Below are positions 43 through 45,529 of a stretch of 64,000 nucleotides of DNA, piece by piece; positions within the stretch are counted from its first letter, which is position 1, and the number at the start of each line of letters is the position of its first letter. The translations under genes and the position numbers were made by a program. Source of the stretch: Abditibacterium sp. (GTDB lineage Bacteria; Armatimonadota; Abditibacteriia; Abditibacteriales; Abditibacteriaceae). The notes beneath the pieces were generated by a model, which worked only from the letters and a program-made list of their open reading frames with translations, had not been told where the DNA came from and did not search any database. Where the stretch lies: positions 32,001-96,000 of the forward strand of contig OZ251992.1 in the NCBI GenBank assembly GCA_965246885.1, given 5' to 3'.

Positions 43-2229
43 TCATGGCGCCAGTTTCATGCGGCCCCAATGGGTGCGGTCAGTGGAGTTTTTGTCGCTG
101 CCGTTCCACATCAGTTGCCGCTCGCGTCGGTTCGCGGCGCCGTCGTCTACAGCCAAATCGAAGCGTAGCTCCCGCCCCGCGCGCGGGGCGGGAGCTACGC
201 CCAGAGCCGCCCAAGGGATGGCGGCTTCAAGGGTATACCCTTTGCCGTCCACACCCGGCACGACGACAGTTTTGCACTGGGTGGGCGCGAGCGCATGGGC
301 GATAAAGGCTTGGCCGGAGTGTCCCGCGCCCAAAAGCACTTGGCGGTCGGAAAACAGCAGTGGGCCGCCGCCGTCTAAGCCCTCGCTGCCAATGAACAGT
401 TCCAAGCCGTCCCCGTTCCACAGGTTCGCGCCTTCTTGCGCGTTGTTCATGGGCGTGGGGTCTTTGACGATGGCGAGCAAGTAGAAGTTGTCGTCGTCCC
501 AGCAGGTCTTGAAAGCGGCCCCCAAGTTCTCGCCGCCAGTTCCCTGCACCATCCGGGCAGGCGAGATGGTCTGCGCGGGCAACCCCCCAAAGCCCGCGCC
601 AGTGCCGTCGAAGGCGACGGGGCCAATTGCATGGGGGCAGACAAGTGTTTTGGCGGCGTCGCTTCCAAGTTGGAAGCGTGGGTTATTCCACACAAACGGC
701 GCGCGTTCTCCCAGAGAGACGCGGTAGATGTCGCTATTGGTGCGGGTCATTTCGGAGAGGGCGTCGCTCCAAGGGCGGTCAGCGACGCTGAGCAGTCCGG
801 TGTTGTTGCCTTCGCCGTGCAAGCCCTCGAACCAGCGCCCGGTCGCGCTTTGGTCAACGAGGGTGAACCACTCCGTTCCCACCACGAACCCCAGCGAAGC
901 GGCACCCTCGACGTAGTTCCGGTAGGCCAAGCCGCGCTCGCGCTGGGTGTTGACGGCCTGCACGCCGCCCAAACCCGACTGCGCGGGCGCGCTCCAATAG
1001 AACTCCGACAGCATCAGGGGCCGCTCGCCGCTCCACCGGTAGATGCGCTTCAACAGGTCGCTATCCAGAGCATCGGTGTAGTAGTTGAACGAGACGACAT
1101 CGCAGTAGCGCCCCATCAAGCGGCACAGCGTTTCGTTGTTGATGGTGCCCGCTTGCAAGCGGTTGCCAAGCAGCAGATGGTGCCGGTCGTAGCGGTGGAA
1201 GGTGTCGGCGAGCAGGCGGAAGTAGGAATTGAGAAAGAGCGCGGTGTAATCGCCCATATCCGCCGCCGCGCGGGGCGTGCGCACGGGTAAGGGCGCGTCG
1301 TCCAGCGCCTCGAACGAGGCGTAGTTTACTCCCCACGCCGCGTTGAAAGCGGCGATGGTCTGGTATTTGGCATGGAGCGTCACCACCAGTTCGCGCTTGC
1401 AAGCGTGGCTCCGGTCGAGAGTGGGCACGACGCGGGGCACATCCTCCAGCAGGGGTTCGTTGGACAAATAATAGCCGATGAGAAGTGGGTCGTCTTGCGC
1501 GGGCGCGACGTATTTAGCGAAAGCGGCGGCAAGTGTGGGCGCGTTGGACGGCTCGAAAGGGTCGAAGACGCCGTTCACGCCGGGGAGAATCGGCAGGTTA
1601 ACCGGCAGATGCCCGACGAAAGGGAAGTTGGCGGCGTGCTCGCTTTGCGTGGGAGGCGAGAAGGCGCCCGCCGAGTTGAAGCCCCACCCTTTGAGCCGCC
1701 CAATCATGCGCGCGGTGTAGCTTTCGAGGTCGTAGGGCCTGCCGGTCTTGCGGATGAGGTTGGCGAGGTGGAAGGAGAACGCGCGCGGGTCGTCGGCGCG
1801 ATACGCGGAAGCGTAAGCGCCCGCGCGTGGGGGGAGCCACTCGTAAGCGCTCTCGCGCCCCGCGACGAGGGTATATTCGTCGCCCGGCGCGAGCACGCAC
1901 ACGCCCAAATGAAAGAAGGCGTCGCCCATCGGATCAACGAGCAACCAGCGCCCGCCGTGCCGCTCGACGTGGAAAAAACCCGTTGCACGCAGTCTTAACG
2001 CTTTGCCGCTTCCGCTTAGGCCGCCGAAACGGTTGGCTTTGAAGGCGGGCGCAGGTTTGGCGCGCGCTTTGAGGCGCTCGTCGGCGCGCAGTTGCGCTTC
2101 GTCGCTCACCTTGCCGGGGTAAGCGGCGCCAACGGGCTGGCCGAAGCGGTCGAGGAGCGGCGCGGCGCGGGCCAAGGGGGGAGCAAGCAACGGCGCCAGA
2201 AGCAAAGCGGCAAGAAACAAGCGGTTCAT
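43..2229 (-). CDS. Secreted GH50/beta-agarase-like glycoside hydrolase with C-terminal CBM9-like sugar-binding domain
   Basis: Signal peptide MNRLFLAALLLAPLLAPPLARA (start moved to ATG 2229). Motifs WLLVDPMG..FFHLGV, GYYLSNEP, DVVSFNYY, PLMLSEF. C-terminus has WDDDNFYL..GDGLELF..YTLEAAIPW. Confidence 0.7.
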   Translation of the reverse strand: MNRLFLAALLLAPLLAPPLARAAPLLDRFGQPVGAAYPGKVSDEAQLRADERLKARAKPAPAFKANRFGGLSGSGKALRLRATGFFHVERHGGRWLLVDPMGDAFFHLGVCVLAPGDEYTLVAGRESAYEWLPPRAGAYASAYRADDPRAFSFHLANLIRKTGRPYDLESYTARMIGRLKGWGFNSAGAFSPPTQSEHAANFPFVGHLPVNLPILPGVNGVFDPFEPSNAPTLAAAFAKYVAPAQDDPLLIGYYLSNEPLLEDVPRVVPTLDRSHACKRELVVTLHAKYQTIAAFNAAWGVNYASFEALDDAPLPVRTPRAAADMGDYTALFLNSYFRLLADTFHRYDRHHLLLGNRLQAGTINNETLCRLMGRYCDVVSFNYYTDALDSDLLKRIYRWSGERPLMLSEFYWSAPAQSGLGGVQAVNTQRERGLAYRNYVEGAASLGFVVGTEWFTLVDQSATGRWFEGLHGEGNNTGLLSVADRPWSDALSEMTRTNSDIYRVSLGERAPFVWNNPRFQLGSDAAKTLVCPHAIGPVAFDGTGAGFGGLPAQTISPARMVQGTGGENLGAAFKTCWDDDNFYLLAIVKDPTPMNNAQEGANLWNGDGLELFIGSEGLDGGGPLLFSDRQVLLGAGHSGQAFIAHALAPTQCKTVVVPGVDGKGYTLEAAIPWAALGVAPAPRAGRELRFDLAVDDGAANRRERQLMWNGSDKNSTDRTHWGRMKLAP

Positions 2230-2261
2230 TGGGAAGAGAAAAGGGCGCCCCCGCCGCACCC

Positions 2262-4670
2262 TTAAGGGACGCGCGGAGCAGTGGAGGGATGCACCACAAG
2301 CGGGTCGTTGCCGGTGATGGGCGCGAGGGGAAAACCGGGAAGCGCGGAGATGGCATCGCCCCGGTCGTCATAGACGGCGTTGTCGGTTCCGGCCTGAGCT
2401 TTAGTGGTGTCGCGTCCGCCGCGCGCGCCCGGTGCGCCCGCCAGATAGGTCACGACGACCGATTTGGACGCGGGCGCTGTCGCCGTGAGTCGGATGTGTG
2501 TCGCGTCCACGATGCGAACACTCGCCGGATTGCCGAGCGCGCCGCCGTCTATCCCGATTTGAAACCCGGAGGGCGTGCCACCCGCCGCGCTCACCAGTTT
2601 GGTGCCGCCGTTGGGCACGACGACCAAATCCACGACGGTCGCGCCGTTCTCGATGTGCCAAGAGGAGCGCGCCCTGTCCACTTCCGGGCCAAGGCCGGAA
2701 AAGGGCGCAGCGCCAATGGCATGGGCGAGGGTTTGCGCGGCGCGACTGGCGAGGATGCCAAGCCCGGAATCGTCGTCGGAAAGATGGGTGCCGTCTTGCG
2801 TTGTCTCATCGAGGGCAAAGCAAAGCACGCCGACGGGCTTGCCTTGCGCGGCGCGCGAGCGCGCCCATTCAACATCGAAGGAGCGGATGCCGTCGGCGTT
2901 GCCGCCCACGCCCCAATCGCCGTTGAGGGGAAATATGAAGAACTTGTAGGGCCAAGGGCCGCCCGGCGCGCTTTGCACGGCGGCGTCGTATTGTGCGAGC
3001 AGTTGGTCGAGGGCCGCGTAGCGCGCTTCGCGGCTCATCCCGACATCGCCCTGACCGTTGCCCCACACCCCGAACTGCGGGCGGGCGCGCTGAATGAAGC
3101 GCTTCCAGCGCGCCCAACGGTCGGTGTCGCCCAAGAACTCGTGGATGGGCGAGCCGCCGACCGCGAAGTTGCCCACGCCAACCGGCCCTTGTGACAGCAA
3201 GGCGAGGCGCTCACTTAAGCGGTTTTCGCCCCAGTTGTCGCGCGACGTGTTGGGCGCGGCGGGCGTCCAGCGCGTTTGCCAGCCTTGCGGCTGCGAGTTG
3301 TCCTGATACCCGGCAGTGTTTTGGTTGAGGTCGGAATAAGCGCGCACATATCCGCCGACTTGCGGGGCGAACGAGCGCCCGCCGCCGCCGTCGTCGCGCA
3401 TCTTTTGCAGGATGGATTGCCCGCCAACGCCCACCACGACACCGAGGGAAAAGCGGCGGTGCAAGCGCTTGGCGGGCGACCATTCGCCCCCGCTTTTCCA
3501 TGACACTTCCGCGTCGTAGTCGGCGAAGCCGTTGGGGATGCCCGCCACGTCGCCCCGCCAACTTTGCCCGTTGCCAACGGCTTGGGCAACCGTCGCCCAA
3601 GCGGTGCCGCCCTTGGCGGCGTCGGGGAGCGGTTCGGGCGCGCCCCAAGGCACGACGCGCATCCGAATATCGGCGCCCGGCCCGACGCGCGTGCCCCAAA
3701 AGCGCGCCTTGGACGTGGCGGCGGGAAAGGGCGCGCGTGGCAAGACCTGCCCAAAGCCGTCCATGTCCACAAGGACATCGTCGCCGACCTTGGCGGGGAG
3801 AAGCGAAGGCGACGCGGCGAATTTGCCGCTTATGGTGCCCGCTTTGCCGCTCACCAGTTCGTCCAACTTGCCATCGGTAATGGTGCCGGGGTAATAACGG
3901 TCGTCGCGGGCGGCGCTCAAGGCGACGACATCGCGCGCGTCGGCCCCCGCGAAAAGGCGGCTCATCTGGGGGCGCGTCAGAGCGCCGCCGTTCCAGATAA
4001 CAACCCCTTGCACCGGTTGCTTCCAGAAGGTGAAGGGCCATTCCGGTTGCGATTTGAGGAGCGCGCCGCCGATGCGCGCGGTTTTTCCGGTGATGCCCTT
4101 GAAGCCGCCGTTGGTAATGCCGCAGTCCATCAAGCGCGCCCCCGCTTCGTCCACGCCCCACAGTTCGACGCGCCCGCTTCGACAGAGCAGGGCCAGCCCA
4201 TGCACGCGCCCGTCGTCCATGCCCGCTTGCCCGACCAAGGGCGTCGCGCCGCCCTCGCCAAACAGCAGGTCGCCCCCGGCAGGAACGCGCGCCGAAGCGC
4301 TCGTGCCCGCGTCATCCTTGGCCGTTGCCACGCAAGTGTTGGCGAAGTGCCCGTATTTCCAAGCGTTGGGGTATTGCGCGCACCACGTGAGAGAGAGGTG
4401 TCCGGCGTCAGTAAAAAGTGTGTTGGAGGGCGTTCCGATGGAAAGCACGGTGCCGGTTTGGTAGTTCCCCGGCGCGATGCGGGTCACGAGGAACACGCTC
4501 CAATCGCCATCGGAGCGCAGCGACACGGCGGGGAGTTCGACGCTGCCGTCCTTCTTTTCGGCGCTGTCAAAAGCAAAGGCGGAAGCGGGGGCGGCGCGCT
4601 CGGTGTGGAAGGGCGCGGCGGGGGCGGCACCCGCGCAAACGGCGGCGAGCAGGAGGGGAAGGAGTTTCAT
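2262..4670 (-). CDS. Secreted protein with LamG/ConA-like N-terminal region and SGNH/SASA-type carbohydrate esterase domain
   Basis: Signal peptide MKLLPLLLAAVCAGAAPA. SGNH-like blocks GGQS, AVGGSPI, WGNGQGD, DGTH. Confidence 0.55.
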   Translation of the reverse strand: MKLLPLLLAAVCAGAAPAAPFHTERAAPASAFAFDSAEKKDGSVELPAVSLRSDGDWSVFLVTRIAPGNYQTGTVLSIGTPSNTLFTDAGHLSLTWCAQYPNAWKYGHFANTCVATAKDDAGTSASARVPAGGDLLFGEGGATPLVGQAGMDDGRVHGLALLCRSGRVELWGVDEAGARLMDCGITNGGFKGITGKTARIGGALLKSQPEWPFTFWKQPVQGVVIWNGGALTRPQMSRLFAGADARDVVALSAARDDRYYPGTITDGKLDELVSGKAGTISGKFAASPSLLPAKVGDDVLVDMDGFGQVLPRAPFPAATSKARFWGTRVGPGADIRMRVVPWGAPEPLPDAAKGGTAWATVAQAVGNGQSWRGDVAGIPNGFADYDAEVSWKSGGEWSPAKRLHRRFSLGVVVGVGGQSILQKMRDDGGGGRSFAPQVGGYVRAYSDLNQNTAGYQDNSQPQGWQTRWTPAAPNTSRDNWGENRLSERLALLSQGPVGVGNFAVGGSPIHEFLGDTDRWARWKRFIQRARPQFGVWGNGQGDVGMSREARYAALDQLLAQYDAAVQSAPGGPWPYKFFIFPLNGDWGVGGNADGIRSFDVEWARSRAAQGKPVGVLCFALDETTQDGTHLSDDDSGLGILASRAAQTLAHAIGAAPFSGLGPEVDRARSSWHIENGATVVDLVVVPNGGTKLVSAAGGTPSGFQIGIDGGALGNPASVRIVDATHIRLTATAPASKSVVVTYLAGAPGARGGRDTTKAQAGTDNAVYDDRGDAISALPGFPLAPITGNDPLVVHPSTAPRVP

Positions 4671-4688
4671 GGGGTGGGCGCCCGCGCC

Positions 4689-6665
4689 TTACGGAGCCGG
4701 ATAGAGTTGGCTCATCGGCACGACCTGCGCGCTTTGATGGCCGGGGCGCATCCACGACAAAACGGCGTTGGCGCCTTGGGTGTCGTCGAAATACTCCATC
4801 TTGAGCGCGTATCTGCGCCCCGCTTCAAGGGCGATTGTCCCGCTGCCATTGGAAAAGGGGCCGCCGACCCAATGATCAATGAGGGGTTTCCCGTCCACCC
4901 ACAAGCGCACGCCGTCGTCGGTGTTGGTTTGGAAGGAATAGGTGCCGCCTTCGAGGGCTTGGACTTGCCCTGTCCAACGCACCGACCAGTGGTCTGGCCC
5001 CACGCCCGCCATCGGTTTGCCGTCGCTTCCGCTTGGGCTGCCCTCGCCCCACCAGTAGTTGACGTTGGCGTCGGTGCGCGTGGCCATCAACTTCTCAAAG
5101 TTCTGACCGGCATAATACTCCGCGTGGAGGCCCGTTCCGTCCCCCAACGCGGGGTAAAGCTGACTGGTAGGAACCGTCTCGAACCCCTTAGCGCCGGGAC
5201 GCTTCCATTCCAATGTGCCTTTGCCCGCACCGAGCAGTTCGGCTTTAAAGGGATAGCGCTGTCCAGCCACAAGAGGGATAGCCTGAGCGCCCACCGTCTT
5301 GCCGTTCACCATCACGCGCAATTTGCCGCTTGCGGGGGCGCGAAAACTGTACAATCCGCCTTCCAAGGCTTGCAATTCTCCGGCGAAGCGGGTTGCGGGA
5401 GCGGTTCGGGCGCCAAAATCAACCGTTGCGGCTTGTGCCGTCCCGATCGGTTTATGCCATCCTTTGTCGGAATAGTATGTGGCGGTCACTCCGGCACCCA
5501 ATCCGGGGATAGCGGCGCTTGGGTCGGCGAACAAGGCGCGAAAACGCGCCGCCGATTGCGGGAACTCGTTGGTCTCGTCCTCGCTCAGGCCGGGGGAGAG
5601 TTGATGGTGCCCATCGCCCGCTTGCACGTCGAAGTGGCAGGCGAAATACACGTTGTTCGTGGGGTCGTTGATAAAGGCGTGCATCTTGTCCACGAACGCC
5701 ACGTTATCCAAACCGCCGTGCCCGTCCTCGCGTTTAGAGATGCTCCATTCCGGCAGCGCGAAGAGCTTACCGTGCGCGCGGGCGAAGTCGCTCCACTCTT
5801 TGAGTCCCATCTGTCCGCCATACGTGAAGTCGTTCCAAGCGCGCTCGCGGCGCCCTGCGGCTTCTTCTTTGGTGGCGCCGTCGGGGATGGGGTAGGTGTC
5901 TTTGGCCCACGACTCATCGTAAACGTCTAACCCCACGATGTCCACCACGTCGTCGCCGGGGTAGGCTTGAGCGGAAGGGAACTGTTGCCAGCCCAAGGCG
6001 GGGTTCCAGCAGAACTGGAGCTTTTCGGCGCCCTTAACGGCGTGCATCGTCCCGACGATTTGGCGCCAATAGGCGGCCCACGCTTTGGGGTCGTCGCTGG
6101 CGCGGTGCGTGTACCAGCCGCCGTTGAACTCCCAGCCCAAACGCAAGACGCTGTCACCCAGCCCGTAGTCCACGAGGTTTTGCGCGAGGGCTTTGAAGTG
6201 CGCGTTGTAGTCCCCCTTGGCACCCGCTTGCAACGAGACGGGCTTGCCCGCATCCGCCCCACGCTTGGCGCCGCTCCTGTCCCAGCCACCGGGAAGAAGC
6301 GGGATGGACAAAATCAGGCGGCGGCGCGGGTCGGCGTGCTTCCAGTCGCGCCATTCGCCCAGTTGCCAGCCGCCGCCCTCGATGTTGTTTTCCCACGCAT
6401 CGTTTGGCTCGAAGTCTTCGGCCCACACGACGGGTCGGTTAATCCACCGGCTGTATGCCAAGTTCGCCTTGGCGCCGCCGCTCTGATTGGCCGCGCCCCA
6501 CCGATACGCCGCTATATAAGGCGCCTTAGCGAGGGGAAAATCGGCGAGAGCGGGGTGCGGCGCGGGCGCGGTGTCACCGGGCGCTCCGGCGGCGGGCGCG
6601 GCGAGGGTGCAGCCGGAGGACAACAGCAACGCAGCGCCCGAAAGAAGCAGGGGGAGAAGTTTCAT
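4689..6665 (-). CDS. GH26-family glycoside hydrolase with two PA14 domains, possible lipoprotein
   Basis: LRLGWEFNGGWY, YPGDDVVDIVGLDVYD, ALPEW. PA14 motifs WSVRWTGQV..TDDGVRLWVDG. LSSGC lipobox-like sequence. Confidence 0.85.
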   Translation of the reverse strand: MKLLPLLLSGAALLLSSGCTLAAPAAGAPGDTAPAPHPALADFPLAKAPYIAAYRWGAANQSGGAKANLAYSRWINRPVVWAEDFEPNDAWENNIEGGGWQLGEWRDWKHADPRRRLILSIPLLPGGWDRSGAKRGADAGKPVSLQAGAKGDYNAHFKALAQNLVDYGLGDSVLRLGWEFNGGWYTHRASDDPKAWAAYWRQIVGTMHAVKGAEKLQFCWNPALGWQQFPSAQAYPGDDVVDIVGLDVYDESWAKDTYPIPDGATKEEAAGRRERAWNDFTYGGQMGLKEWSDFARAHGKLFALPEWSISKREDGHGGLDNVAFVDKMHAFINDPTNNVYFACHFDVQAGDGHHQLSPGLSEDETNEFPQSAARFRALFADPSAAIPGLGAGVTATYYSDKGWHKPIGTAQAATVDFGARTAPATRFAGELQALEGGLYSFRAPASGKLRVMVNGKTVGAQAIPLVAGQRYPFKAELLGAGKGTLEWKRPGAKGFETVPTSQLYPALGDGTGLHAEYYAGQNFEKLMATRTDANVNYWWGEGSPSGSDGKPMAGVGPDHWSVRWTGQVQALEGGTYSFQTNTDDGVRLWVDGKPLIDHWVGGPFSNGSGTIALEAGRRYALKMEYFDDTQGANAVLSWMRPGHQSAQVVPMSQLYPAP

Positions 6666-6677
6666 GGCGATGGAGGG

Positions 6678-8516
6678 TTAGTTGACGACGACATCGTCGA
6701 GGTTGATCCACTGGTTGCCCGCCGCGTTGGAGTAGAACGAAAGTTCCAAAGTTCCGCTTGTGACGTTGACGGTGGTGGTTATTTTCTGCCACGTGCTCGC
6801 GGCGGGAATGTTGACGACGGCCACGTTGCTTCCGTCATAGTATTTGACGGCCATCTGGCAGGCCGCTTGTCCGCCACTGCTTTTAATCCACGCGCTGATG
6901 GTATGGGGGCCGTTGGGAACGGTGACTTGCTGATAGAGCGTGGTTTGGTAGGGGTTGGGCGACCAGTTGTCGCAGCCCCAACTGCCGGTGTGCGCTTCGC
7001 CCGCGCCGTTGGCCGCGAAAACAGCGTTGCCGTTATTGCCGACCCACAAGTTCCAGCCGCTCAGGTTGCCGGTCTCGAAGCCGGAGTTCTGGAGGTAGTT
7101 CGAGATGACGGTGGGAACGGCGCTGACCTCGGAAGAGAAGGCGCTCAGACCGTTGGAGTTGACCGCCTTGACTTTGTAGTAGTAGCGCGCGCCGGGAGAG
7201 AGGCCGGTATCCGCAAAGGAGGTGGCGGTCACGCCAGTAGCGATGGGCGTGGCCGCTTCGCCGCCTGCGCTTGTGCCGCGATAGACGTTGTAAGTGACGG
7301 CACCGGGCGCCATCGTCCACGACAGCGCGACTTGTCCACCGCCTGCGGTGGCTTTGAGTCCACCGGGAACATTGGGCACCGCCGCGCTGCCCGCGTCGGA
7401 AAACAAGCGCTTGTAAAGAGCCGCCGAGTTGGGGAAGGTCGTGGCGCCAAAGATACCCGACAGGCTGCTGTTGCCATCGGCGGGCGCTTCAAAGTAGCAG
7501 GCGACGGCGACGTTCTTGGCGGGGTCGTTCAGCCAGTTATACATCCGTTGGATATAGGAGGTGTTGTCGCCGCCACTGGGGTGGTTGCCGTCGTTCAGTT
7601 GCCACAAGCCCCATTCGCCCACGACGACCGGTTTTTTGTGGGCGCGCGCCAAGTCCGCGAGAACGTTGATGCGCGGCAGTTCGGAGTTAAACCATGCGGC
7701 ATCGCGCTGGGCCTGCGTGGGCTGCGTGGTGCCAACGGGGTAAAGGCCGCCGTAGGCAACATCGTAGGTGTCGAAGCCCACGTAGTCCACCCAAGCGTCG
7801 CCGGGGTAGTAGTTGGGCGAGTAGACCTGCACGTTGGAATCGGTCGGGTTCCAGCAGAACTTGAGGACGCCGCCACTATCGTTGGCGCGCATGGTGTTGA
7901 CGATGTTGCGCCACGCCGCGATGTAGTTGGTGGGCATGTTCGACATCGCGTTGAGGTTGCCAAAGGGGTTCCAACCGCCATCGAACTCGTAGCCCAAGCG
8001 GATGATGACCTTTTTAAAGCCGAGCGAGTTCACTTCCTTGGCGTAGTTGGCGAAATACGCCATCGTCGCGGGGTCGTTGTTGGCTTCGAGTTGCCACTCT
8101 TGGTTTTCCCACGCGAGCTTTTGATCCCACGTGTCGTTGCCGTTGGGGTCGGCGGGCATTTGGCCCATCCCTAAAATGACGGTGGGAAGGTTGGCGCCCT
8201 TGCGCGTCTGCATCGTAGACCAAGGGATGTTCCAGTTGACGTGCTGGGCGCAATCGTACCAATCGCCCGGCCCCCATCCCGGATCGGCTTCGGCGCCCAA
8301 ATTGGCGGTGCCCAACCAAGCGCGGTATTTGGCCCAGTTGCCCGTCCCCTGCCCGGCGGGGCCGGAAAGGTCGGCATCGTAGGCTTGGTTGTAAAGATAA
8401 ACCGACTGCTCGAAGCGGGTAGCGGCGGGTGCCTTGGCGGGCGCTCCGACAAGGGCAAGGGCGCCGAGGGCGCACGCTGTTACTGTAACTTTGGCGGAAA
8501 AGCGGATGGTGTTCAT
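6678..8516 (-). CDS. GH26-family glycoside hydrolase with fibronectin type III and CBM4/9-like domains
   Basis: IRLGYEFDGGW, YYPGDAWVDYVGFDTYD, VGEWG. FN3 motif YNVYRGT..YYYKVKAVN; NSGFETG CBM start. Start placed at MNTIRF (ATG 8516). Confidence 0.85.
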   Translation of the reverse strand: MNTIRFSAKVTVTACALGALALVGAPAKAPAATRFEQSVYLYNQAYDADLSGPAGQGTGNWAKYRAWLGTANLGAEADPGWGPGDWYDCAQHVNWNIPWSTMQTRKGANLPTVILGMGQMPADPNGNDTWDQKLAWENQEWQLEANNDPATMAYFANYAKEVNSLGFKKVIIRLGYEFDGGWNPFGNLNAMSNMPTNYIAAWRNIVNTMRANDSGGVLKFCWNPTDSNVQVYSPNYYPGDAWVDYVGFDTYDVAYGGLYPVGTTQPTQAQRDAAWFNSELPRINVLADLARAHKKPVVVGEWGLWQLNDGNHPSGGDNTSYIQRMYNWLNDPAKNVAVACYFEAPADGNSSLSGIFGATTFPNSAALYKRLFSDAGSAAVPNVPGGLKATAGGGQVALSWTMAPGAVTYNVYRGTSAGGEAATPIATGVTATSFADTGLSPGARYYYKVKAVNSNGLSAFSSEVSAVPTVISNYLQNSGFETGNLSGWNLWVGNNGNAVFAANGAGEAHTGSWGCDNWSPNPYQTTLYQQVTVPNGPHTISAWIKSSGGQAACQMAVKYYDGSNVAVVNIPAASTWQKITTTVNVTSGTLELSFYSNAAGNQWINLDDVVVN

Positions 8517-8555
8517 GGGTGTGTGGCGGTCATTCATATCTCCCCAGATAAAAGC

Positions 8556-8581
8556 GCGCCGGGGATTGTAATCCCCGGCGC
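8556..8581 (-). terminator. Stem-loop between pilin-like genes and downstream GH26 gene (weak terminator or mRNA stabiliser)
   Basis: gcgccggggat-tgta-atccccggcgc (11-bp stem), followed by GCTTTT on the minus strand. Confidence 0.6.
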
Positions 8582-8603
8582 CAGACAAGTTCGCACGCGC
8601 GGC

Positions 8604-9404
8604 TCAGTCGGCGTCCACGCTCCACGCGGTGTAGGCGCCATTAGGCGCTTCGTGGACGAGGCGGTCGTCGTTGAGGGCTTTGACGTGGCCATCGGTGAAG
8701 AGAACGTTGGTCGTGTTCAAATGGCGCTCGGAGGCTCCACTGCCCCACTGGCGCAAGCAGTAGCGGTGCCCGTCGTCGCCGATTTGGAAGTCGGGGCCAT
8801 AAGCGGTGTCGAAAATCACGGCGTAACCTTGGTCTGTTGAGACGTTGGGAACGCAGTAACCATCCACGACCCAGATCGTGCCGGAGGGGTCTTGCATCTG
8901 GGACAGGGTCGAGTAGTTCGCAGGCCCGCCGCCGCCCGCGCCGTAGTAAGCGTTGATGGCGTAGGAGCCGTATGAGGTGTTGGGGACGCCCGACGTGTAG
9001 TCGTACTCCTTATAGGGGATGTAGGCCTTGTTGCCGCTCTTGGTCGAATCGAACGGCAGCAACGTGTCGCTGGGGCACACGAACAGTTGCTTGCTCTTGA
9101 GGTAAGGGGAAACGGCGTCCATCCACTTGTAGTTGTCGGCGTCCGAGGCGCCATCCCCGCCGGGGCCGTAGCGCTTCTGCACTAACTGCTCGTCGTAGTC
9201 CTGCGAGTATTGCAGCAGACCCAAACCGATCTGCTTGAGGTTGGATTGGCAACTGGCGCGGCGGGCGTTCTCGCGGGCGCGTGCAAAGGCCGGGAACAAG
9301 ATAGCGGCAAGAAGGGCGATGATGGCGATAACTACCAAAAGTTCCACCAAAGTAAATCCTTTCCGGGTGCCCGAAGTAGCGGTTTTGAAGGTGCAAGTGT
9401 TCAT
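8604..9404 (-). CDS. DUF1559 prepilin-type N-terminal cleavage/methylation protein with H-X9-DG motif
   Basis: [38 protein letters not shown]. Start at MNTCTF (alternative 9422). Confidence 0.92.
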
Positions 9405-9440
9405 GGTTGTGGGTTGCCTCATAGAGACGAAAACGGTGGG

Positions 9441-10265
9441 TTACCCGTTGTTGGTTTGCGAAACTCCCAACGAGGTGTTCCAGTTGCCATCGCAGGCACT
9501 GGGTGCGGTGGCTCCGTCAACATTGGCGTTGTTGATTGTCCACATGCAAACGGGACTGCCCGTTGCAACGGGCTTGAGGGATTTGACATGACCGTCCATG
9601 AAAAGGAAGTTGGTGGTGCCCAAGTGCCCTTGCAGGTTTTCCATGTTGCCCTTGTCGTAAGCATCGGGATTGTCCGCGTTCTTGCTTTCGGTAATCATGA
9701 TGACGGTCGCAACGCTGGGTATTTCCGCCATGCTCCGCGTCTGAAAGGCACCGCCGCTATACAGTTCGATCATCGGCCTTCTCGAACCGGGGCCGTTGCT
9801 CGAAGCCGCTTCTTGCCCACCGTTGGCCATGTAGGAGATGGGCATCGCTTGCGTTGCAACCGCGCCCGTATCGGAAAAGCGGGTGTCGTAACCGCCGGGG
9901 TCGGGGGCGCCGTTCATGTTGCCACTGGCTGTGTTGGAAGGGCACTTGAAGATTTGCGCGCTCTTGACGTAAGGTTGCAACAGGGTTTGAAAGGGCACGC
10001 GGGAAACGCCGGGAGTGCCGCCGTAATACCAGCGCACCGGCAGAACTTTCTCGTCGTAGTCCTGCGAGTATTGGAGAGCACCTAATCCAATCTGCTTGAG
10101 GTTGGATTGGCAGGAACTGCGTCGGGCGTTCTCGCGGGCACGCGCGAAAGCCGGGAACAAGATAGCGGCAAGTATCGCTATGATAGCGATAACTACCAAT
10201 AATTCTATAAGGGTAAATCCTTGGCGGCTCAAAGCCTTTGGTTGAAAGTTGCTGAATGTGTTCAT
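9441..10265 (-). CDS. DUF1559 prepilin-type protein with H-X9-DG motif
   Basis: [38 protein letters not shown]. Confidence 0.92.
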
Positions 10266-10316
10266 GGGTCTCTCTAAAGTAAATAAAAGAGGCAGTTGCT
10301 TTTGTTTGGTGGCGAG

Positions 10317-11330
10317 TTAAACTGAGCGCGGCGCGCTCACCGAAGCGCGCTCGACCAGATGAACCGGAGCGACGCGGCAGCAGTTCGCGGCCTCCTCGCC
10401 GCGCCCTAACCCGATCCACGCTTCGACGGCCAAGCGCCCGATGTTGGCGTAGCCAAAGCCCACGCTTGAAAGGCCGCGATGCCGCGTGTCCTGATCGTCC
10501 ACGCCAATTAAAGACAGGTCGCGCGGAACATGAAGCCCCGCTTGAGCGGCGGCATCCCACAATTGGAGCGCCAGAAAGTCGTTGATGCACGCCACGCCGG
10601 TGATACCGGCGCCCTTTAGATGTGCCAGCACGTCGGGCCGCAATTCCCATGCGGCAGTCGCGCCCTCAATGATGGGCGCAGCAGATAAGCCCAGCCGCTC
10701 CGCTTGCAACGCGAAGGCCCGTTGGCGGGCGAGGTCGTCAAAAGCGCCCAGTGAACTGGGGCCGGACAGATAAGCGATGCGCCGATGGCCGTGCGCGTGC
10801 AAATGCTCGACGGCCAAACGCATGATCTCTTCGTTGTCCGGGTCAACCCACGCCACGTTCGCGGGCACGTCGCGGCGGTAACACGCCACCGCCGGGATGC
10901 CGTGCTCTTCCAGCTTTTCCAAGATGTCGTGCCATTGAAGCACATCCGGCGAAATGAAGATGAAACCATCAGAGCGCCGGTCGAGAAAGCGGATGGACGC
11001 GTGGCTCATCCAATCCTGCGCGTCGCGTAGCATCACCACCAAGTCGTAAGAGTGCGCGTGCGCTTGCGAGCACAGCCCCTCGAAGGTTTGGGAGTCAATC
11101 GGGTTGCCCGACACGTTCGAGGTGAAAGGAACAATGCCAATCGAGCGCGTTTGCACGTGGCGATTTTGCAGCGCCGACGCAACGGGCACATACCCCAAGT
11201 CGCGCACCGAAGCCATCACGCGCTCAAAAGTGTCATCCGCCACAAGTCCCTTGCGCCCGCGCAACACACGCGACACCGTCATCGGAGAAACGCGGGCATG
11301 TTCGGCTACTTGTCGGATGGAAGGACGCAT
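10317..11330 (-). CDS. LacI-family transcriptional regulator
   Basis: HTH PSIRQVAEHARVSPMTVSRVL; sugar-binding domain ending VPRDLSLIGVDD. The ORF-track upstream extension is only translated repeat DNA. Confidence 0.93.
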   Translation of the reverse strand: MRPSIRQVAEHARVSPMTVSRVLRGRKGLVADDTFERVMASVRDLGYVPVASALQNRHVQTRSIGIVPFTSNVSGNPIDSQTFEGLCSQAHAHSYDLVVMLRDAQDWMSHASIRFLDRRSDGFIFISPDVLQWHDILEKLEEHGIPAVACYRRDVPANVAWVDPDNEEIMRLAVEHLHAHGHRRIAYLSGPSSLGAFDDLARQRAFALQAERLGLSAAPIIEGATAAWELRPDVLAHLKGAGITGVACINDFLALQLWDAAAQAGLHVPRDLSLIGVDDQDTRHRGLSSVGFGYANIGRLAVEAWIGLGRGEEAANCCRVAPVHLVERASVSAPRSV

Positions 11331-11336
11331 CGGGGA

Positions 11337-11349
11337 TGTTACTGTATCA
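11337..11349. promoter_or_regulatory. Candidate LacI operator (TGTTACTGTATCA)
   Basis: Near-palindrome between the -10 box and the lacI start; resembles the TGTTAC..GTAACA class of LacI-family sites. Confidence 0.55.
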
Positions 11350-11350
11350 G

Positions 11351-11380
11351 AGTATGCCCAAAAAAATGGGGCTTCAAACA
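11351..11380 (-). promoter_or_regulatory. Promoter of LacI/pilin locus 1: TGTTTGA-N13-TGGGCATACT
   Basis: Same motif and spacing as at 45554-45583 and 61035-61064; A-tract upstream. Confidence 0.65.
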
Positions 11381-11414
11381 TTTTCGCCCACTTTTTTTTG
11401 CGCGTCCCCTGCAC

Positions 11415-11623
11415 GCGCCGATGACGGAGAGACGCGCGCCAACAGTTGAACGGTACGCGCCAACAGTTGAACGGTACGCGCCGACGGTTGAACGGTGCGC
11501 GCCAACAGTTGAACGGTACGCGCGACGACCGAATTGTACGCGCCGACGATTGAACGGTACGCGCCGACGATTGAATGAGGCGTGCCAACCGAAGATAGAA
11601 GCGCGCCAACGACAGAGCCGGGC
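11415..11623. repeat. Intergenic 21-bp tandem array, about 10 units, consensus GCGCCAACAGTTGAACGGTAC
   Basis: Units at 11415, 11436, 11457, 11478, 11499, 11520 (20 bp), 11540, 11561, 11582, 11603; degenerate at both ends. Confidence 0.9.
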
Positions 11624-16331: not shown

Positions 16332-16371
16332 CAGGGAGAAGGGTGTAGCAATTCGCGGGGCAGGGACAGTT

Positions 16372-20263: not shown

Positions 20264-20336
<73 letters not shown>

Positions 20337-37330: not shown

Positions 37331-40081
37331 ATGAGTTCCACTCCCACCGAAATGGCGCCGCAGTTTGACCCGCATCCCGTCGAGGCGCGTTGGGGCGCGT
37401 TCTGGATTGAGAATGGCGTTGGGCGCGCGTCGGGCGACCCGGCACAGGCCAAGCCGTTTGTCCTCACCATTCCCCCGCCCAACGTCACGGGCGTTTTGCA
37501 CTTGGGGCACGCGCTTCAGCACTCCATTCACGACTGCCTCCTGCGCTACCATCGCATGAAGGGCGACGCGGCGCTGTGCGTGCCGGGGACGGATCATGCG
37601 GGCATTGCGACGCAGATAAAGGTCGAGCAACTGCTGCGGAGTGAGGGCACGTCGCGCGAAGAGTTGGGGCGCGAGGACTTTTTAGAACGCGTGTGGGAGT
37701 GGAAGGAGCGCTACGGCGCGACCATCATCGAGCAGATGCACGCGCTCGGCTGCTCCTACGACTGGGAGCGCGAACGCTTCACGATGGACGAGGGCTACGT
37801 CAAAGCCGTCCTGACGGTCTTCAAGTCGTGGTTCGACCGGGGGCTGATCTATCGCGGGTACCGCTTGGTGAACTGGTCGAGCGGCGCCAAGACAACCGTC
37901 TCGGACTTGGAAATCGAAGCGCGCGAGGTGAGCGGCTCGCTGACGTATATCCGCTACCCCGTTGAAACCTCCCCCGGCCCCTCCTCCGAGAGGAGGGGAG
38001 AAGCTGCCGAGTTCATCACCGTCGCCACGACGCGGCCCGAAACGATGCTGGGCGATACGGCGGTCGCGGTGCATCCCGACGACGCGCGGTATGCGCACCT
38101 GCGCGGGAAGAACGTGGTGTTGCCGCTGATGAACCGCGCCATTCCGGTCGTGTTTGATGAGTCCGTCTCGATGGAGTTCGGCACGGGCGCGGTGAAGATA
38201 ACGCCCGCGCACGATCCGAGCGACTATGAGATGGGCACGCGGCACGGGCTGGAAATGATCTCGGTCATTGGCTTCGACAACCTCATCACCGACGCGGGCG
38301 GCGCGTATGCCGGGATGGACAAAACCGACGCGCGCAAGCGCATCATCGCGGATTTGAAGGCGCTGGGATTGCTCGAAAAGGTGGAGCCAATCACGCACAC
38401 CGTCCCGCACTGCGCGCGCACGGGCGTGGTGATTGAGCCGCTTTTGTCCGAGCAGTGGTTCGTGGCGATGAAGGAATTAGCCCGCCCCGTCGCCGACGCC
38501 ATCCGCATGAATCGCGTGCGCTACCACGCGCCGCGTTTTGCGCAAACGAGCTTGGAGTGGTTAGATGGCATCCGCGACTGGTGCATTTCGCGGCAACTGT
38601 GGTGGGGTCACCGCATCCCCATCTACTACGGGCCAAACGGCGAAGTGGAGTGCTCGATTGAACCCATCGAGCGCGAGGGCTGGCACCAAGACGGCGACGT
38701 GTTGGATACATGGTTTTCGAGCGCCTTATGGCCCTTCGCGGTGTTGGGCTGGCCCGACGCCTTGGAGCGCGCGTGGTATCCCACGTCGGTTCTGATCACG
38801 GGCCGCGACATCCTCAACCTGTGGGTGTCGCGCATGATTACCACGAGCTTGGACTTTGTGGACGGCCAAGTGCCGTTTCACGATGTCCTCGTGCATCCCA
38901 CCATTCAGGACTCCTTCGGGCAACGGATGAGCAAATCGCTCGGCACGGGCATTGACCCGCTCGAACTGATAGACATCTACGGCGCCGACGCCACACGCTA
39001 CGGCTTGTTGCAACTCGCGGGCGGCGCGCAGGACACGCGGTTTTTGGATGGCGCCATGACCAAGCTGGGCGAAACGGCGGTCAAGCGGTGGATAAAGGAG
39101 CATCGCGGCGAAGCCCTCCCGCTCGAATGGAGCGACGCCGACGGCAAGCCGACCGAGCGCTTCCCGCAAATGCAAGCGGCGCGCAACTTCGCCAACAAAA
39201 TCTGGAATGCCGCGCGCTTAGTGCTGAGCGCGCAGGTTGACCAGTGGAATGGGGAACTGCCGCAAGACCTGCCCTCGCGTTGGATTGCCAAACAACTCAA
39301 CGAAACAATCGTCAAAGTCACCGACTCGCTGGACGCCTACGCCTTCGACGCCGCGTGCCGCACGCTCTACGAGTTCATCTGGGGGGACTTTTGCGATTGG
39401 TTCTTGGAAACGAGCAAGCCCCAACTGCGCGAAGGCGACGCGCAACATATCGCGTTTATGGCGCACGTTCTCGAAGTCTCGCTGCGCTTGCTGCATCCGT
39501 TCATGCCGTTTCTGAGCGAGGAGATTTGGAGCCGCGTTACGGGGCGAGAGGGCGTGTGCCTTGCCGCGTGGCCCCAAGCGTACCCTTACCAATCGCCCGG
39601 ATTCGAGTCGGACTTCTTTCTCATTCAAGATGTCACACGCGCGGCGCGTAGCCTTCGCACGCAAGCGCAAATCCCGCCTTCCAAAAAGGTCGCCATGACC
39701 GTCCAAACTCACGGGACGGACGGCTGCATGGGGAACCTGCTGACCAACGGCTATCTCGTCGCGCAACTGGCCAACGTGGAACCGCTTGCAATTCAACGGT
39801 TCGGCACCGAGCGTCCCGCCAATGCCATCGCCGAAGAAAACGAACTCTTCGCCGTTGTTCTGCCGCTCGAAGGCCTGATAGACGTGGCCAAGGAGCGCGC
39901 CAAATTAGAGCGTCAACTGGAAGCGGCGCAAAAGGACGAGGCCAAAGTTGCGGGCAAACTGGCCAACCCCAACTTCGCCGCCAACGCGCCTGCCGAAGTC
40001 GTGGCCAAAGACACCGCGCGCGTGGCCGAACTGCGCGGCCAAATCGAGGTATTGACCGCGCGCTTGGCGGCGCTTTCCTAA
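37331..40081 (+). CDS. valS: Valine--tRNA ligase
   Basis: PPPNVTG.LHLGH, DHAGIATQ, TTRPET, DWCISRQLWWGHRIP, RMSKS, C-terminal coiled coil. Confidence 0.98.
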   Translation: MSSTPTEMAPQFDPHPVEARWGAFWIENGVGRASGDPAQAKPFVLTIPPPNVTGVLHLGHALQHSIHDCLLRYHRMKGDAALCVPGTDHAGIATQIKVEQLLRSEGTSREELGREDFLERVWEWKERYGATIIEQMHALGCSYDWERERFTMDEGYVKAVLTVFKSWFDRGLIYRGYRLVNWSSGAKTTVSDLEIEAREVSGSLTYIRYPVETSPGPSSERRGEAAEFITVATTRPETMLGDTAVAVHPDDARYAHLRGKNVVLPLMNRAIPVVFDESVSMEFGTGAVKITPAHDPSDYEMGTRHGLEMISVIGFDNLITDAGGAYAGMDKTDARKRIIADLKALGLLEKVEPITHTVPHCARTGVVIEPLLSEQWFVAMKELARPVADAIRMNRVRYHAPRFAQTSLEWLDGIRDWCISRQLWWGHRIPIYYGPNGEVECSIEPIEREGWHQDGDVLDTWFSSALWPFAVLGWPDALERAWYPTSVLITGRDILNLWVSRMITTSLDFVDGQVPFHDVLVHPTIQDSFGQRMSKSLGTGIDPLELIDIYGADATRYGLLQLAGGAQDTRFLDGAMTKLGETAVKRWIKEHRGEALPLEWSDADGKPTERFPQMQAARNFANKIWNAARLVLSAQVDQWNGELPQDLPSRWIAKQLNETIVKVTDSLDAYAFDAACRTLYEFIWGDFCDWFLETSKPQLREGDAQHIAFMAHVLEVSLRLLHPFMPFLSEEIWSRVTGREGVCLAAWPQAYPYQSPGFESDFFLIQDVTRAARSLRTQAQIPPSKKVAMTVQTHGTDGCMGNLLTNGYLVAQLANVEPLAIQRFGTERPANAIAEENELFAVVLPLEGLIDVAKERAKLERQLEAAQKDEAKVAGKLANPNFAANAPAEVVAKDTARVAELRGQIEVLTARLAALS
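37967..38000 (+). repeat. Short palindromic element inserted in frame in valS
   Basis: acctcccccggCCCCTCCT-ccgag-AGGAGGGGag encodes TSPGPSSERRGE in a normally short loop. Confidence 0.7.
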
Positions 40082-41073
40082 GCATCCAGCGTGGCAAGCA
40101 TCTCGCGCGTCAGCGCAAACCCGCGCGGTTTGCCGTCTGCAAACGCCGCCAAGTCGTCGGCCAAGTAACGCAGGATGCGCACAACAGAGGGCGCGATGCC
40201 GCCCGCGCGGTGTGGCGAAAGCAGCACGTTCGGCAACGCGCGAAACGGTGAATCGCGCGGGAGCGGCTCTTGGTCGAAGACATCGAGCGCCGCGAACAAG
40301 TCGCCGCGACACAAGCGAGCGAGTAGCGCCGCCGAATCTACCAAAGAAGCGCGCGCCACGTTGATCAGCACCGCGTCGCGGGGCATTGCTTCGAGGTGCG
40401 CGCGGCCCAGCAAGTGCGCGCTGCCCTCGTTGGCCGCCGCGCACAGGACGAGGACATCGGACTCGCGCACCAACTCCTCCAAGCCGACCAAGCGCGCCCC
40501 CAACTGCGCGGCGCGGGCGGGCGGCAGGAACGGGTCGTAAGCGCAAAGTCGCGTATGGAACGGCGCTAACAGTTCGGCCAAGCGCCCGCCGACGCCGCCC
40601 AAGCCGACAATCCCCACGCGCAACCCCGTCAGTTCGCGCTCATAAAGCGGGATGTCGCCGGGGAAGTCCGCCACCCACGCTTCCGCCGCGTTCCACATGG
40701 CGGCGTGGTAGTTCGAGGTGCGGCGCAGACTCGCCAGAATGAGCGCGAGCGCCATTTCCGCGACGGCGGGCGAAAAGCCGCGCCGCCCGACCGAAACGGC
40801 AATGTCGCGGTCAAGCAACGTCCTCGCAAAAGGCTGCGTGATGTCTATGTGCCCGCAAAAGCGCAAGCGCGGCGCCGCGTCGAGCATGGCGGGCGAGAAC
40901 ATCGGCCACGACCACATCAGGAGGGCATCCTTGTCGCGCAGAAGCGGCGCGATCTCTTCGGGAGTGTCGCACGACGCCCGCTCGATGTGGGCGAAGGTGC
41001 CCAATTCGCACCAAAAGTCGGCGAGTGGCGCCCAACTGAAGAACGTTGGCGGCAAGTTGACGAGCAGATTCAT
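40078..41073 (-). CDS. D-2-hydroxyacid dehydrogenase family protein
   Basis: VGIVGLGGVG, YDP, LINVAR, LDVFDQEP, SPHRAG. Confidence 0.9.
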   Translation of the reverse strand: MNLLVNLPPTFFSWAPLADFWCELGTFAHIERASCDTPEEIAPLLRDKDALLMWSWPMFSPAMLDAAPRLRFCGHIDITQPFARTLLDRDIAVSVGRRGFSPAVAEMALALILASLRRTSNYHAAMWNAAEAWVADFPGDIPLYERELTGLRVGIVGLGGVGGRLAELLAPFHTRLCAYDPFLPPARAAQLGARLVGLEELVRESDVLVLCAAANEGSAHLLGRAHLEAMPRDAVLINVARASLVDSAALLARLCRGDLFAALDVFDQEPLPRDSPFRALPNVLLSPHRAGGIAPSVVRILRYLADDLAAFADGKPRGFALTREMLATLDA

Positions 41074-43532: not shown

Positions 43533-43562
43533 AACAGCCCGCAACACGTGTTGCGGGCTGTT
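43533..43562 (-). terminator. Stem-loop between pilin-like gene and downstream hydrolase
   Basis: Perfect 30-bp palindrome aacagcccgcaacacgtgttgcgggctgtt. Confidence 0.75.
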
Positions 43563-43573: not shown

Positions 43574-44344
43574 TTAGTTCATGCCCTGTTGCAGCACGCC
43601 CAAGCGGTCGAGCAACGGTTGCGGCGCGGAGCCGGAAGCGGTGTTTCCAAACGCTGTGGTGTTGGATATATTCCACAAGTTGAGCGGCGTGCCGGTGGCA
43701 AGAGGTTTGAGCGCCTTGACGTGGCCATCGGCGAACAAGTAGTTGCTGGTGCCTAAGTGGTTTTGCAAACGCAGGCTGGCGACATCAGTTACACCCTCAC
43801 CTTGGTTGGCGTAGTCGCTAACGCTGTTGGTCTCGTAGACCATGATAGTTGTCGCGGAGTTATTTAGCTCAGATAATGCGCATAAATACTCTGAGGTCGC
43901 ATAGTAACCACCAAAGATGAGCTTGCCTCCATAAGAGTTAGTCGCGTCGTGTTCGGTGTTGTACTCGCCGGAGACGACTTGGTAAGAAACGGGAATGGTG
44001 TTGTTCGTGTTTCTCATAAAGTCGTTGGAACTGTTCGATGGGCACTTGAACAATTGTGTGCTTTTGACGTAAGGTTGAATTACGAACGCCCAAGCCGCAT
44101 CTTTGGTGGGGGTGATGGGAATGGCGATCTTCGGGAACCGCTCGTCGTAGTCCTGCGTGTATTGCATGATGCCCAAGCCGATTTGCTTGAGATTGCTTTG
44201 GCAGGAGGCGCGGCGCGCATTTTCGCGGGCGCGGGCGAAAGCGGGGAACAAGATAGCTGCCAAAATTGCGATAATGGCGATAACTACGAGCAATTCTATG
44301 AGCGTGAACGCGAAGCGGCGGCTCTGGTTTGTGTGGAAACGCAT
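43574..44344 (-). CDS. DUF1559 prepilin-type protein with H-X9-DG motif
   Basis: [38 protein letters not shown]. Confidence 0.92.
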
Positions 44345-44380: not shown

Positions 44381-45529
44381 TTAAGCTTCTCGCACCTGCG
44401 GTGCGAGAAGGACGTGTGAGACGGCGACAGGCTCGCCGGAAAGCGCGGTTTCGACCGACTCGAACAGCGAGTCCACGAGCGCGCCGGGGTCAATTTGTAA
44501 GGCCACAAACTCTTCTTCGTGGCCCAAAAGCGCGGGCGAACCCGCGTTGCAGTGCGAGGCGAGCAACACATCGGCGGGCCGCTCGCATCCGGCCTTCAGG
44601 CCGAGTTTGTGCCATGCCGACAGCGCGCCGCGCGTCATCAAGTCGTCCACGACCAGCACAGCGTCGGGCGGATTGGGCGCGCCGAACACTTCGAGCGCCA
44701 AACGGTAGCCCTGCTCCTGATGCGACTCGCGCTCGAAATCGCCGGGGGCTTTCAAGCGGCGGTTCAGGTCGTGGACAAGCGACGCCTCGAACTCTAAACC
44801 GTGCGCCCGCACACAAGTGGCGAAGGTCGTTTCGTGGGCATCGCGCTCGGCATTGGCTTCGTCCGGGGCAATGTAAAGCGGGCGATACGGCGTGACGGGC
44901 CGCCACATCGCTATGCGCCGCGCGCCGCGCCGCGCCAACTCCGCGACTCCCAAAGACAGCATGGCGTCCAAGTCAATCCCGACCGTGACGCGCCCCATGC
45001 CCGCGAAGGACACAAAGACGGCGCCTTGGCTTTCCAGACTTCGGACGGCGGCAGGGCCAAGACCGACGCCGATCACGCCGTCTATTCGTCCGCGCTCGAT
45101 GTCGAGCAACAGCGCCGCATCGAGTGGCGCGTTGACATCTTCGGGCGCGAACTGCAAACGCAACTCTTCGCCATGCTCCGCCGCGCGCCCTTTGGCCGCT
45201 TCGAGCAGCAAATCCCAGAACGGCGACGTGCCCGCCCCGCGAAAGTGCGCCGGATGGCACACCAACGCGAGGGTGCGCGTCGTTTTAGCGACGAACAAAC
45301 CCACGCCATGCTGCCGCCGGATGATTCCATTCGCTTCCAGTTCGCCGAGCGCCGCGTTGAGCGTGGTCAGGCTCACGTTTAGCTCGTCGCGTAGCTGTGT
45401 CACGCGCGGCAACTTCGCGCCCGTCCCCAACGCCCGCGCCATTTCCGCCACGCGCGCGCACGTCTCGTGAACCCGCTTGGGTGCGCGCGGCGTCGGGGCA
45501 ACTGGCGAAGAAAGAGAAGGCTGTCTCAT
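44381..45529 (-). CDS. GntR-HTH regulator with LacI-type sugar-binding domain
   Basis: GAKLP..LRDELNVSLTTL..RQHGVGLFV; C-terminal PPDAVLVVDD. Confidence 0.88.
   Translation of the reverse strand: MRQPSLSSPVAPTPRAPKRVHETCARVAEMARALGTGAKLPRVTQLRDELNVSLTTLNAALGELEANGIIRRQHGVGLFVAKTTRTLALVCHPAHFRGAGTSPFWDLLLEAAKGRAAEHGEELRLQFAPEDVNAPLDAALLLDIERGRIDGVIGVGLGPAAVRSLESQGAVFVSFAGMGRVTVGIDLDAMLSLGVAELARRGARRIAMWRPVTPYRPLYIAPDEANAERDAHETTFATCVRAHGLEFEASLVHDLNRRLKAPGDFERESHQEQGYRLALEVFGAPNPPDAVLVVDDLMTRGALSAWHKLGLKAGCERPADVLLASHCNAGSPALLGHEEEFVALQIDPGALVDSLFESVETALSGEPVAVSHVLLAPQVREA

Follow-up and report, generated by a model that had tools for sequence, protein, structure and literature searches.

The 64,000-nucleotide stretch analysed here (the window; G000:C1:32001-96000, G000 being the genome under study, 3.56 Mb and 92.7% complete) comes from Abditibacterium sp. 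of the phylum Armatimonadota, and it holds three loci in which a sugar-sensing regulator is followed by prepilins of the DUF1559/H-X9-DG family. Genome-wide, this order of regulator and pilin is non-random, far beyond chance, and pilins of the same family also follow vitamin and metal sensors, in places where relatives keep TonB receptors. Locus 1 occupies the left end of the window on the minus strand, in the order LacI, pilin A, pilin B, hairpin, GH26, GH26, esterase and GH50-like hydrolase, and runs on past the window edge with a GH32 gene and a melibiase/alpha-galactosidase:

11337..11349, minus strand: LacI-type operator-like palindrome, 7 bases before the LacI start codon
10317..11330, minus strand: LacI-family regulator (PF00356 and PF13377; start set by the orthologue in the relative G008)
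9441..10265, minus strand: DUF1559/H-X9-DG prepilin A, 274 aa (N_methyl and PF07596; predicted to fold as a type IV pilin that carries a large insert)
8604..9404, minus strand: DUF1559/H-X9-DG prepilin B, 266 aa (N_methyl and PF07596)
8556..8581, minus strand: GC-rich hairpin of 11 bp, then a short T run, between pilins and enzymes
8478..8490, minus strand: second operator-like palindrome, possibly chance, within the 5' end of the first GH26 gene
6678..8516, minus strand: GH26 + Fn3 + CBM4_9-like protein (Pfam; signal peptide by inspection)
4689..6665, minus strand: GH26 + PA14 protein (Pfam; signal peptide by inspection)
2262..4670, minus strand: probable SASA/SGNH-type carbohydrate esterase (Atlas features 0.95, PF03629 clusters)
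43..2229, minus strand: GH50-like hydrolase with a CBM9-like domain (PDB 4bq2, E 6.6e-40)

Signal peptides, here and below, are by-eye calls made with no predictor. An initial annotation, drawn from the letters of the window, had proposed this composition, and profile or PDB matches uphold its LacI regulator, prepilins, hairpin, two GH26 proteins and GH50-like enzyme; the esterase is named from Atlas features only and has zero matches in Pfam, NCBIfam or PDB. The palindrome ahead of LacI, which we take to be of the LacI-operator type, has a matching palindrome at the equivalent position of the orthologous locus in G008. The second palindrome was not found in the G008 locus, and by a rough estimate about 2 such sites are expected genome-wide. 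Because the locus combines two GH26 proteins with an esterase and an alpha-galactosidase, its gene content points to an acetylated galactomannan-type glycan as the likely target, although this is only a lead since the GH26 Pfam matches are weak (E about 1e-9). At about 11400-11590 of the window, 5' of the LacI promoter, lies an array of imperfect repeats of roughly 22 bases each; the nikR gene discussed below is preceded by a different array.

All five prepilins of the window match PF07596 and PF07963 (N_methyl) above curated cut-offs, as one would expect had the annotation been right to credit DUF1559 proteins with prepilin leaders. The leader is of class III, short and basic, with G/A at -1, F at +1 and E at +5, and a hydrophobic helix comes next. 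The C-terminal H-X9-DG motif is present by pattern match, and H214, G225 and H226 are invariant across 44 homologues; TIGR04294, the model for this motif, was not among the matches listed at E 1e-6. An AlphaFold2 model of pilin A built with those 44 homologues (predicted local distance difference test, pLDDT, 91) has a 51-residue helix (residues 19-69), a loop-rich insert and an H-X9-DG segment that leads into a core beta hairpin. When this model was used in a VIA structural search, the top 18 rows were all pilins or pseudopilins, EpsG and PulG were among the matches, and no periplasmic binding-protein fold appeared among the 50 rows shown; the best Z was a modest 5.1 (root-mean-square deviation 3.7, 121 residues aligned), and Foldseek returned no match at E<=0.001. 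The GspG model TIGR01710 reached 31-35 bits, below its cut-off of 88.85, and a model of the nickel pilin described below had a pLDDT of 52 and was unusable. Among paralogues the mature N-terminal 56 residues are near-constant (median 93% identity to the majority), and the remaining, variable part has a median identity of 38% to the nearest paralogue. DUF1559/H-X9-DG proteins are thus predicted to have a type IV pilin fold, as the annotation's reading implied, in which the assembly helix and core hairpin are constant and frame a variable insert.

Our own hexamer model called 2,988 genes in G000 (start codons are rough), including 58 DUF1559-type prepilin genes in 49 clusters. A pilin is the next co-oriented gene after 15 of the 25 PF13377 (LacI/GntR-type) regulators, against a mean of 0.45 and a maximum of 5 when gene order was randomised 20,000 times. 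It stands within two genes of 17 of them (shuffles mean 0.85, maximum 7); the other eight have no pilin in the next two positions, and several of their genes have signal peptides by inspection. Among the 15 regulator-led clusters the next gene is of carbohydrate-active enzyme (CAZyme) type in 11, compared with 4 of 100 random genes (Fisher p 2e-9), the class being our own assignment (glycosidase or carbohydrate-binding domain, co-oriented; a few below curated cut-offs) and one control gene being itself a pilin-downstream gene. The regulator-pilin-CAZyme order that the annotation had expected to be enriched is thus enriched genome-wide. Over all pilin clusters the fraction is 14/49 (p 4e-5 against the same control), where 47 of the 49 first genes 3' of the clusters were scanned against Pfam and the two unscanned ones entered as negatives. 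The domains in those 14 are GH26, GH39, GH29, BNR (twice), GH5, F5/8, GH10, GH13, PA14, LamG+GDSL, pectate-lyase-like, GH9 and GH2/CBM11. Strong hairpins lie 3' of 30/36 pilins versus 67/178 gap-matched controls (p 6e-9), so a transcript step rich in pilin seems probable. A further regulator, a split LacI gene with a truncated prepilin remnant after it (G000:C1:3047199-3048500), is a decayed copy of the cassette.

The other two loci of the window have the same regulator and pilin at their head:

44381..45529, minus strand: locus 2 GntR regulator with a LacI-type sugar-sensing domain (Pfam)
43574..44344, minus strand: locus 2 DUF1559/H-X9-DG prepilin (N_methyl and PF07596)
43533..43562, minus strand: locus 2 hairpin, 13 bp, 3' of the prepilin
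41095..43446, minus strand: locus 2 protein of 783 aa (signal peptide by inspection; weak Atlas lead to GH30/CBM6 clusters, 0.79-0.81)
40078..41073, minus strand: locus 2 D-2-hydroxyacid dehydrogenase family enzyme (Pfam)
61122..62357, plus strand: locus 3 GntR regulator with a LacI-type sugar-sensing domain (Pfam)
62439..63188, plus strand: locus 3 prepilin 1 (N_methyl and PF07596)
63303..64000, plus strand: locus 3 prepilin 2, whose gene ends 58 bases beyond the window edge

For locus 2 the annotated regulator, prepilin, hairpin and dehydrogenase stood, but the 'GH-like' label of the 783-aa protein did not, as this protein has no match in Pfam, NCBIfam or PDB. Locus 3 is, as described, a GntR regulator with prepilins cut by the window edge; beyond the edge, a third prepilin and a PhyH dioxygenase are followed by three large proteins, none of which matched a glycosidase in Pfam or could be assigned to a family. 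PhyH-family dioxygenases flank pilins repeatedly (G000:C1 97362, 116787, 947952, 2487087). The scanned genes of loci 1-3 matched no transporter family, none of the genes in these loci is a TonB-dependent receptor, and 0/14 of the genome's PF00528 (ATP-binding cassette, ABC, permease) matches fall inside them. The annotation's statement that TonB receptors (SusC included) and ABC sugar transporters are missing from these loci agrees with these results; SusD, which it also gave as missing, had no match among the scanned locus genes, and no genome-wide SusD search was made.

Pilins are not confined to sugar regulators. The only thiamine pyrophosphate (TPP) riboswitch match in G000 lies 76 bases before a pilin, the only cobalamin riboswitch match 140 bases before another, and the sole nikR match precedes a pilin with an HHHE (His-triad) motif that faces NicO-type genes. 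To ask what relatives keep in the B12 slot we surveyed 27 family genomes and examined 37 of 39 cobalamin-riboswitch matches: the riboswitch leads to a TonB receptor at 20 loci, to a single pilin clade at 10 and to other genes at five, and two loci were not called. Members of this clade are 45-60% identical in the variable part, excluding the copy in G000, and the three family genomes without a TonB receptor (G000, G009 and G013) all have the B12 pilin. For nickel we surveyed 20 nikR loci of relatives, from 22 non-self matches; the gene after nikR is a TonB receptor in three, an orthologue of the G000 pilin in two (68-71% identical) and another pilin in one. The same NicO-type gene is faced by receptor, ExbB, ExbD and TonB genes in G010 and by a pilin in G003 and G000, and in the metagenome locus L104 a pilin stands directly before ExbB-, ExbD- and TonB-like genes (the last two named by inspection), followed by NicO. 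Among metagenome relatives the nickel pilin clade keeps HHHE and several acidic residues. We examined 80 of their 285 loci, many on short contigs, and found nikR within 1 kb in 20/80 and CbiM next in 4/80 (12 and 4, respectively, in 63 clusters dereplicated at 90%); their 142 neighbours include 15 NikR, 5 HupE/UreJ, 3 CbiM and 3 CobW proteins. Because relatives keep TonB receptors in this slot for both B12 and nickel, it appears to be the slot of an outer-membrane receptor rather than of an ABC binding protein. Cobalamin is too large for porins and Gram-negative bacteria need a receptor for it, which makes the B12 case the strongest argument for outer-membrane crossing.

Several neighbours of these and other pilins are recorded here in their own right. 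Facing the nikR pilin, G000:C1:1943170-1952983 holds two exported proteins, presumably DUF4331-like, a TPR-like gene and two NicO-type genes, and another gene for a PilT-like ATPase is found two genes away from nikR. Further cargos may be hinted at by a pilin between DUF485 and SSF symporter genes (G000:C1:1989368-1992332) and by pilins at G000:C1 2344510, 2258163 and 3327410, of which the first adjoins a modA-like gene, the second precedes a metallophosphoesterase and the third comes after an ABC permease.

Genes for a machine that could assemble such pilins are present in G000. One operon carries PilB-like, PilT, PilC-like and PilD genes together with four pilin-like genes, and a second carries PilM/N/O/P-like genes (named by order and inspection, with no family match) and a PilQ-like secretin. 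PilT is above its NCBIfam cut-off and the PilD gene is present, so that a prepilin peptidase and probable type IVa pilus genes with a PilT ATPase, which the annotation's proposal presupposed, were found. The 63 N_methyl matches of G000 are accounted for by count as 58 DUF1559 pilins, 4 operon pilins and 1 remnant. Since no separate short or conventional PilA was found among these 63, and since the first operon pilin has 62% of the DUF1559 N-terminal 56 residues in common, we take the DUF1559 proteins to be this machine's main pilins. Tad genes and six secretin matches also occur in G000; two near-identical tandem pilin genes (G000:C1:143756-145328) lie some 6 kb away from a secretin of Tad type, and a tandem array of three secretin genes (L040; G000:C1:2111654-2116287), which no pilus or secretion genes adjoin, may provide extra channels for the pilin system. 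LpxC and LpxD are present, indicating a lipopolysaccharide (LPS) outer membrane, and the TonB receptor (PF00593) and TonB C-domain (PF03544) have 0 matches in G000. ABC permeases are few (14 PF00528 matches), with sugar-porter matches only weak.

The reading we favour, at about an even chance, is that DUF1559 pilins capture particular nutrients as subunits of one common retractile type IV pilus, which would stand in for TonB receptors. The wider form of this idea we hold a little less firmly: that, in addition to porins and TonB receptors, the pilus might give glycans, vitamins and metals a third general route across the outer membrane, its subunit mix being set by dozens of nutrient sensors. 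The observed basis is the gene order and its enrichment, the linkage to sensors, the swapping of slots with TonB receptors and the machine genes. The annotation had put the pilins where a binding protein sits in sugar operons and had proposed glycan capture; the enrichment, the machine and the fold agree with capture, but the slot appears to be that of an outer-membrane receptor, and a glycan-only reading is too narrow because pilins also follow B12, TPP and nickel sensors. As we picture it, a LacI repressor would release its operon once its sugar is present, and the hairpin would yield more pilin than enzyme mRNA. PilD would cut the leader and PilB/PilC would add the pilin to the fibre, whose variable surface might bind the cargo (oligosaccharide, B12, thiamine or nickel). 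Retraction by PilT could then pull the cargo through or to the secretin, where inner-membrane permeases would take over.

A number of observations weigh against this proposal. Leader residue -1 is Ala in 39/58 pilins and Gly in 19/58; PilB, PilC and PilQ are the best-matched families yet fall below NCBIfam cut-offs, and GspE/GspF/GspD-like genes also occur in G000. At 92.7% completeness a receptor gene could be missing from the assembly, and B12 receptor and B12 pilin coexist in five family genomes. Regulators lead only some of the pilins: 34/49 clusters are not regulator-led, and in these the next gene is of CAZyme type in 3/34 (p 0.37). Pilins of glycan loci are only loosely tied to their enzymes. 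The orthologous locus 1 of G008 keeps its enzymes (67-75% identical) and, beside its GH26, an orthologue of pilin B (57% identical in the variable part), but its pilin A slot holds a different pilin; a second orthologous glycan locus (L264) also has a replaced pilin, so that 2/3 pilin slots in orthologous glycan loci are swapped, which weakens any strict specificity of one pilin for one glycan. The two closest relatives of pilin A (L258 and L259) stand alone with neither regulator nor CAZyme, although a regulator is followed by a pilin in 8/20 re-examined top pilin A loci. Given the swapped slots and stand-alone relatives, tight co-inheritance of pilin and CAZyme is unsupported. Nor did 17 TonB-receptor-match loci of relatives include a regulator-receptor-CAZyme locus, and a swap of receptor for pilin within sugar loci is unsupported by them. 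At L345-L355 of relatives, which are not sugar loci, a recurring 630-aa gene adjoins genes for proteins some 1,200 aa long that weakly match the TonB-receptor barrel. Finally, in a cross-phylum GTDB sample, which is a broad DUF1559 family set rather than pilin A orthologues and from which 9/77 loci (mostly Lentisphaeria) were dropped as our script found no pilin there, upstream genes are of LacI type in 4/64 (3 Armatimonadota, 1 Victivallales; rough gene calls) and few of the 25 downstream families listed are CAZymes, so the glycan cassette seems lineage-biased.

Other explanations must be weighed against the same evidence. It is possible, though we think it unlikely at perhaps one chance in five, that the pilins are anchored periplasmic binders that stay in the inner membrane after cleavage by PilD, or form short periplasmic fibres, and feed permeases or sensors. 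Such a role would fit the 'solute-binding' label that the family bears in the available passages of PMC2754498 and PMC4807772, the inner-membrane NicO, CbiM, ECF, SSF and ABC permeases that adjoin pilins, and the scarcity of ABC permease (14) and sugar-porter matches in G000. The predicted fold, however, is that of a pilin rather than of a periplasmic binding protein; the slot in common is that of an outer-membrane receptor; and B12, whose size keeps it out of porins, has no identified receptor in G000, a genome with LPS genes. Less probable still is that the fibres are inducible adhesins, holding the cell on insoluble glycan and varying for attachment or phage escape, with no import by the pilus. 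Swapped pilins in glycan loci and the divergence of the variable part (median 38% to the best paralogue) are what such adhesins might look like, and type IV pili are reported to aid chitin adhesion in a planctomycete in the part of PMC11131199 available to us, but pilins behind B12, TPP and nickel sensors, and the His and acidic residues that the nickel clade conserves, would be left unexplained.

We regard as about equally doubtful, or marginally more so, that the pilins are pseudopilins of type II secretion, with every operon contributing a piston subunit of its own so that its large enzymes can be exported or displayed. Pilins are indeed followed by large enzymes with by-eye signal peptides, G000 has GspE/GspF-like genes and six secretin matches, and the structural search brought up EpsG and PulG; yet no co-oriented secreted enzyme follows the TPP and nickel pilins, and 8/25 regulators have no pilin in the next two positions, although several of the genes they head encode signal peptides by inspection. 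That the genes are neutral recombining cassettes which land behind promoters with no tie to substrate we consider very improbable: in its favour are 5' ends that hardly vary (median 93% over 56 residues), the pair of near-identical tandem genes, the decayed cassette and the swapping of slots, but placement behind nutrient sensors departs strongly from chance, and the B12 and nickel clades keep to their sensors across genera.

The DUF1559 (domain of unknown function) family is very large, with an estimated 180,000 or so sequence stretches in GTDB contigs, and the sensors would give it named candidate cargos. It is described as restricted to the Planctomycetes-Verrucomicrobia-Chlamydiae (PVC) group in the passages seen, and the annotation had it expanded in Planctomycetota and related phyla. 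It is not PVC-only: all 41/41 searched genomes of the phylum studied here have DUF1559, with 4 to at least about 50 scored matches each, and the same 41 genomes have 0-6 TonB-receptor matches each. As far as the available passages go, PMC2754498 and PMC4807772 use the solute-binding term with no evidence given, the former citing Studholme 2004; PMC10632474 reports 68 DUF1559 paralogues in Planctopirus, two of them essential; PMC5352709 mentions DUF1559 on plasmids; PMC5394234 places dextran on 12-nm pili-like fibres of Planctomycetes; and PMC11131199 treats the link of pili to uptake as still open. The main text of PMC13526803 makes no mention of pilins. Pilin-headed glycan loci or sensor-linked pilins had no description in the literature searched, which was mostly open-access and without supplements, so the arrangement is apparently undescribed in those papers; its parts are known, and the uptake route would be new.

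If the pilus does carry nutrients inward, the route would serve TonB-poor phyla (Armatimonadota and probably PVC), and it would suggest how diderms that degrade glycans with few TonB receptors, or none, move food across the outer membrane. Pilin neighbours would then let substrate range be read in uncultured phyla, like SusC/D pairs in Bacteroidota. Elsewhere in the window, and unconnected with the pilins, 14727-19779 holds three kinase-like genes in tandem, two with a Cys-rich N-terminus by inspection, and a tRNA gene at 20264-20336 is the sole Rfam match.

The published DUF1559/SBP_bac_10 family has the same domains (PF07596 with PF07963/TIGR02532, and H-X9-DG) and is likewise a large paralogue family here; as published, in the passages seen, it is 'solute-binding' and of PVC bacteria, whereas here it is found in an Armatimonadota genome, has a pilin-like model and is tied to named nutrient sensors. 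The dextran-binding 12-nm fibres of Planctomycetes (PMC5394234) are glycan-binding structures of DUF1559-rich bacteria in another phylum, their subunit not named in the passage available, and by analogy we infer that DUF1559 could be that subunit. The polysaccharide utilisation loci of Bacteroidota (SusC/SusD) and the TonB carbohydrate loci of proteobacteria resemble the present loci in that a single inducible locus unites a regulator, a gene for capture at the surface and genes for secreted CAZymes; they differ in that here a pilin fills the capture slot and that neither a TonB receptor nor TonB was found in G000. In competence type IV pili (ComP, the Thermus pilins) a polymer is captured and retracted through a secretin, for one cargo, DNA, with few pilins. 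The predicted pilin fold, the genes for a PilB/PilT/PilQ-like machine and the proposed capture and retraction are alike here, but about 58 large pilins stand under separate nutrient sensors. Closest of all in their sensors and neighbouring permeases are the btuB cobalamin-riboswitch and NikR-TonB receptor regulons, to whose type 20 of the 37 family B12 loci belong; unlike in these regulons, in 10 of the 37, and in several nikR loci, a pilin takes the place of the receptor.

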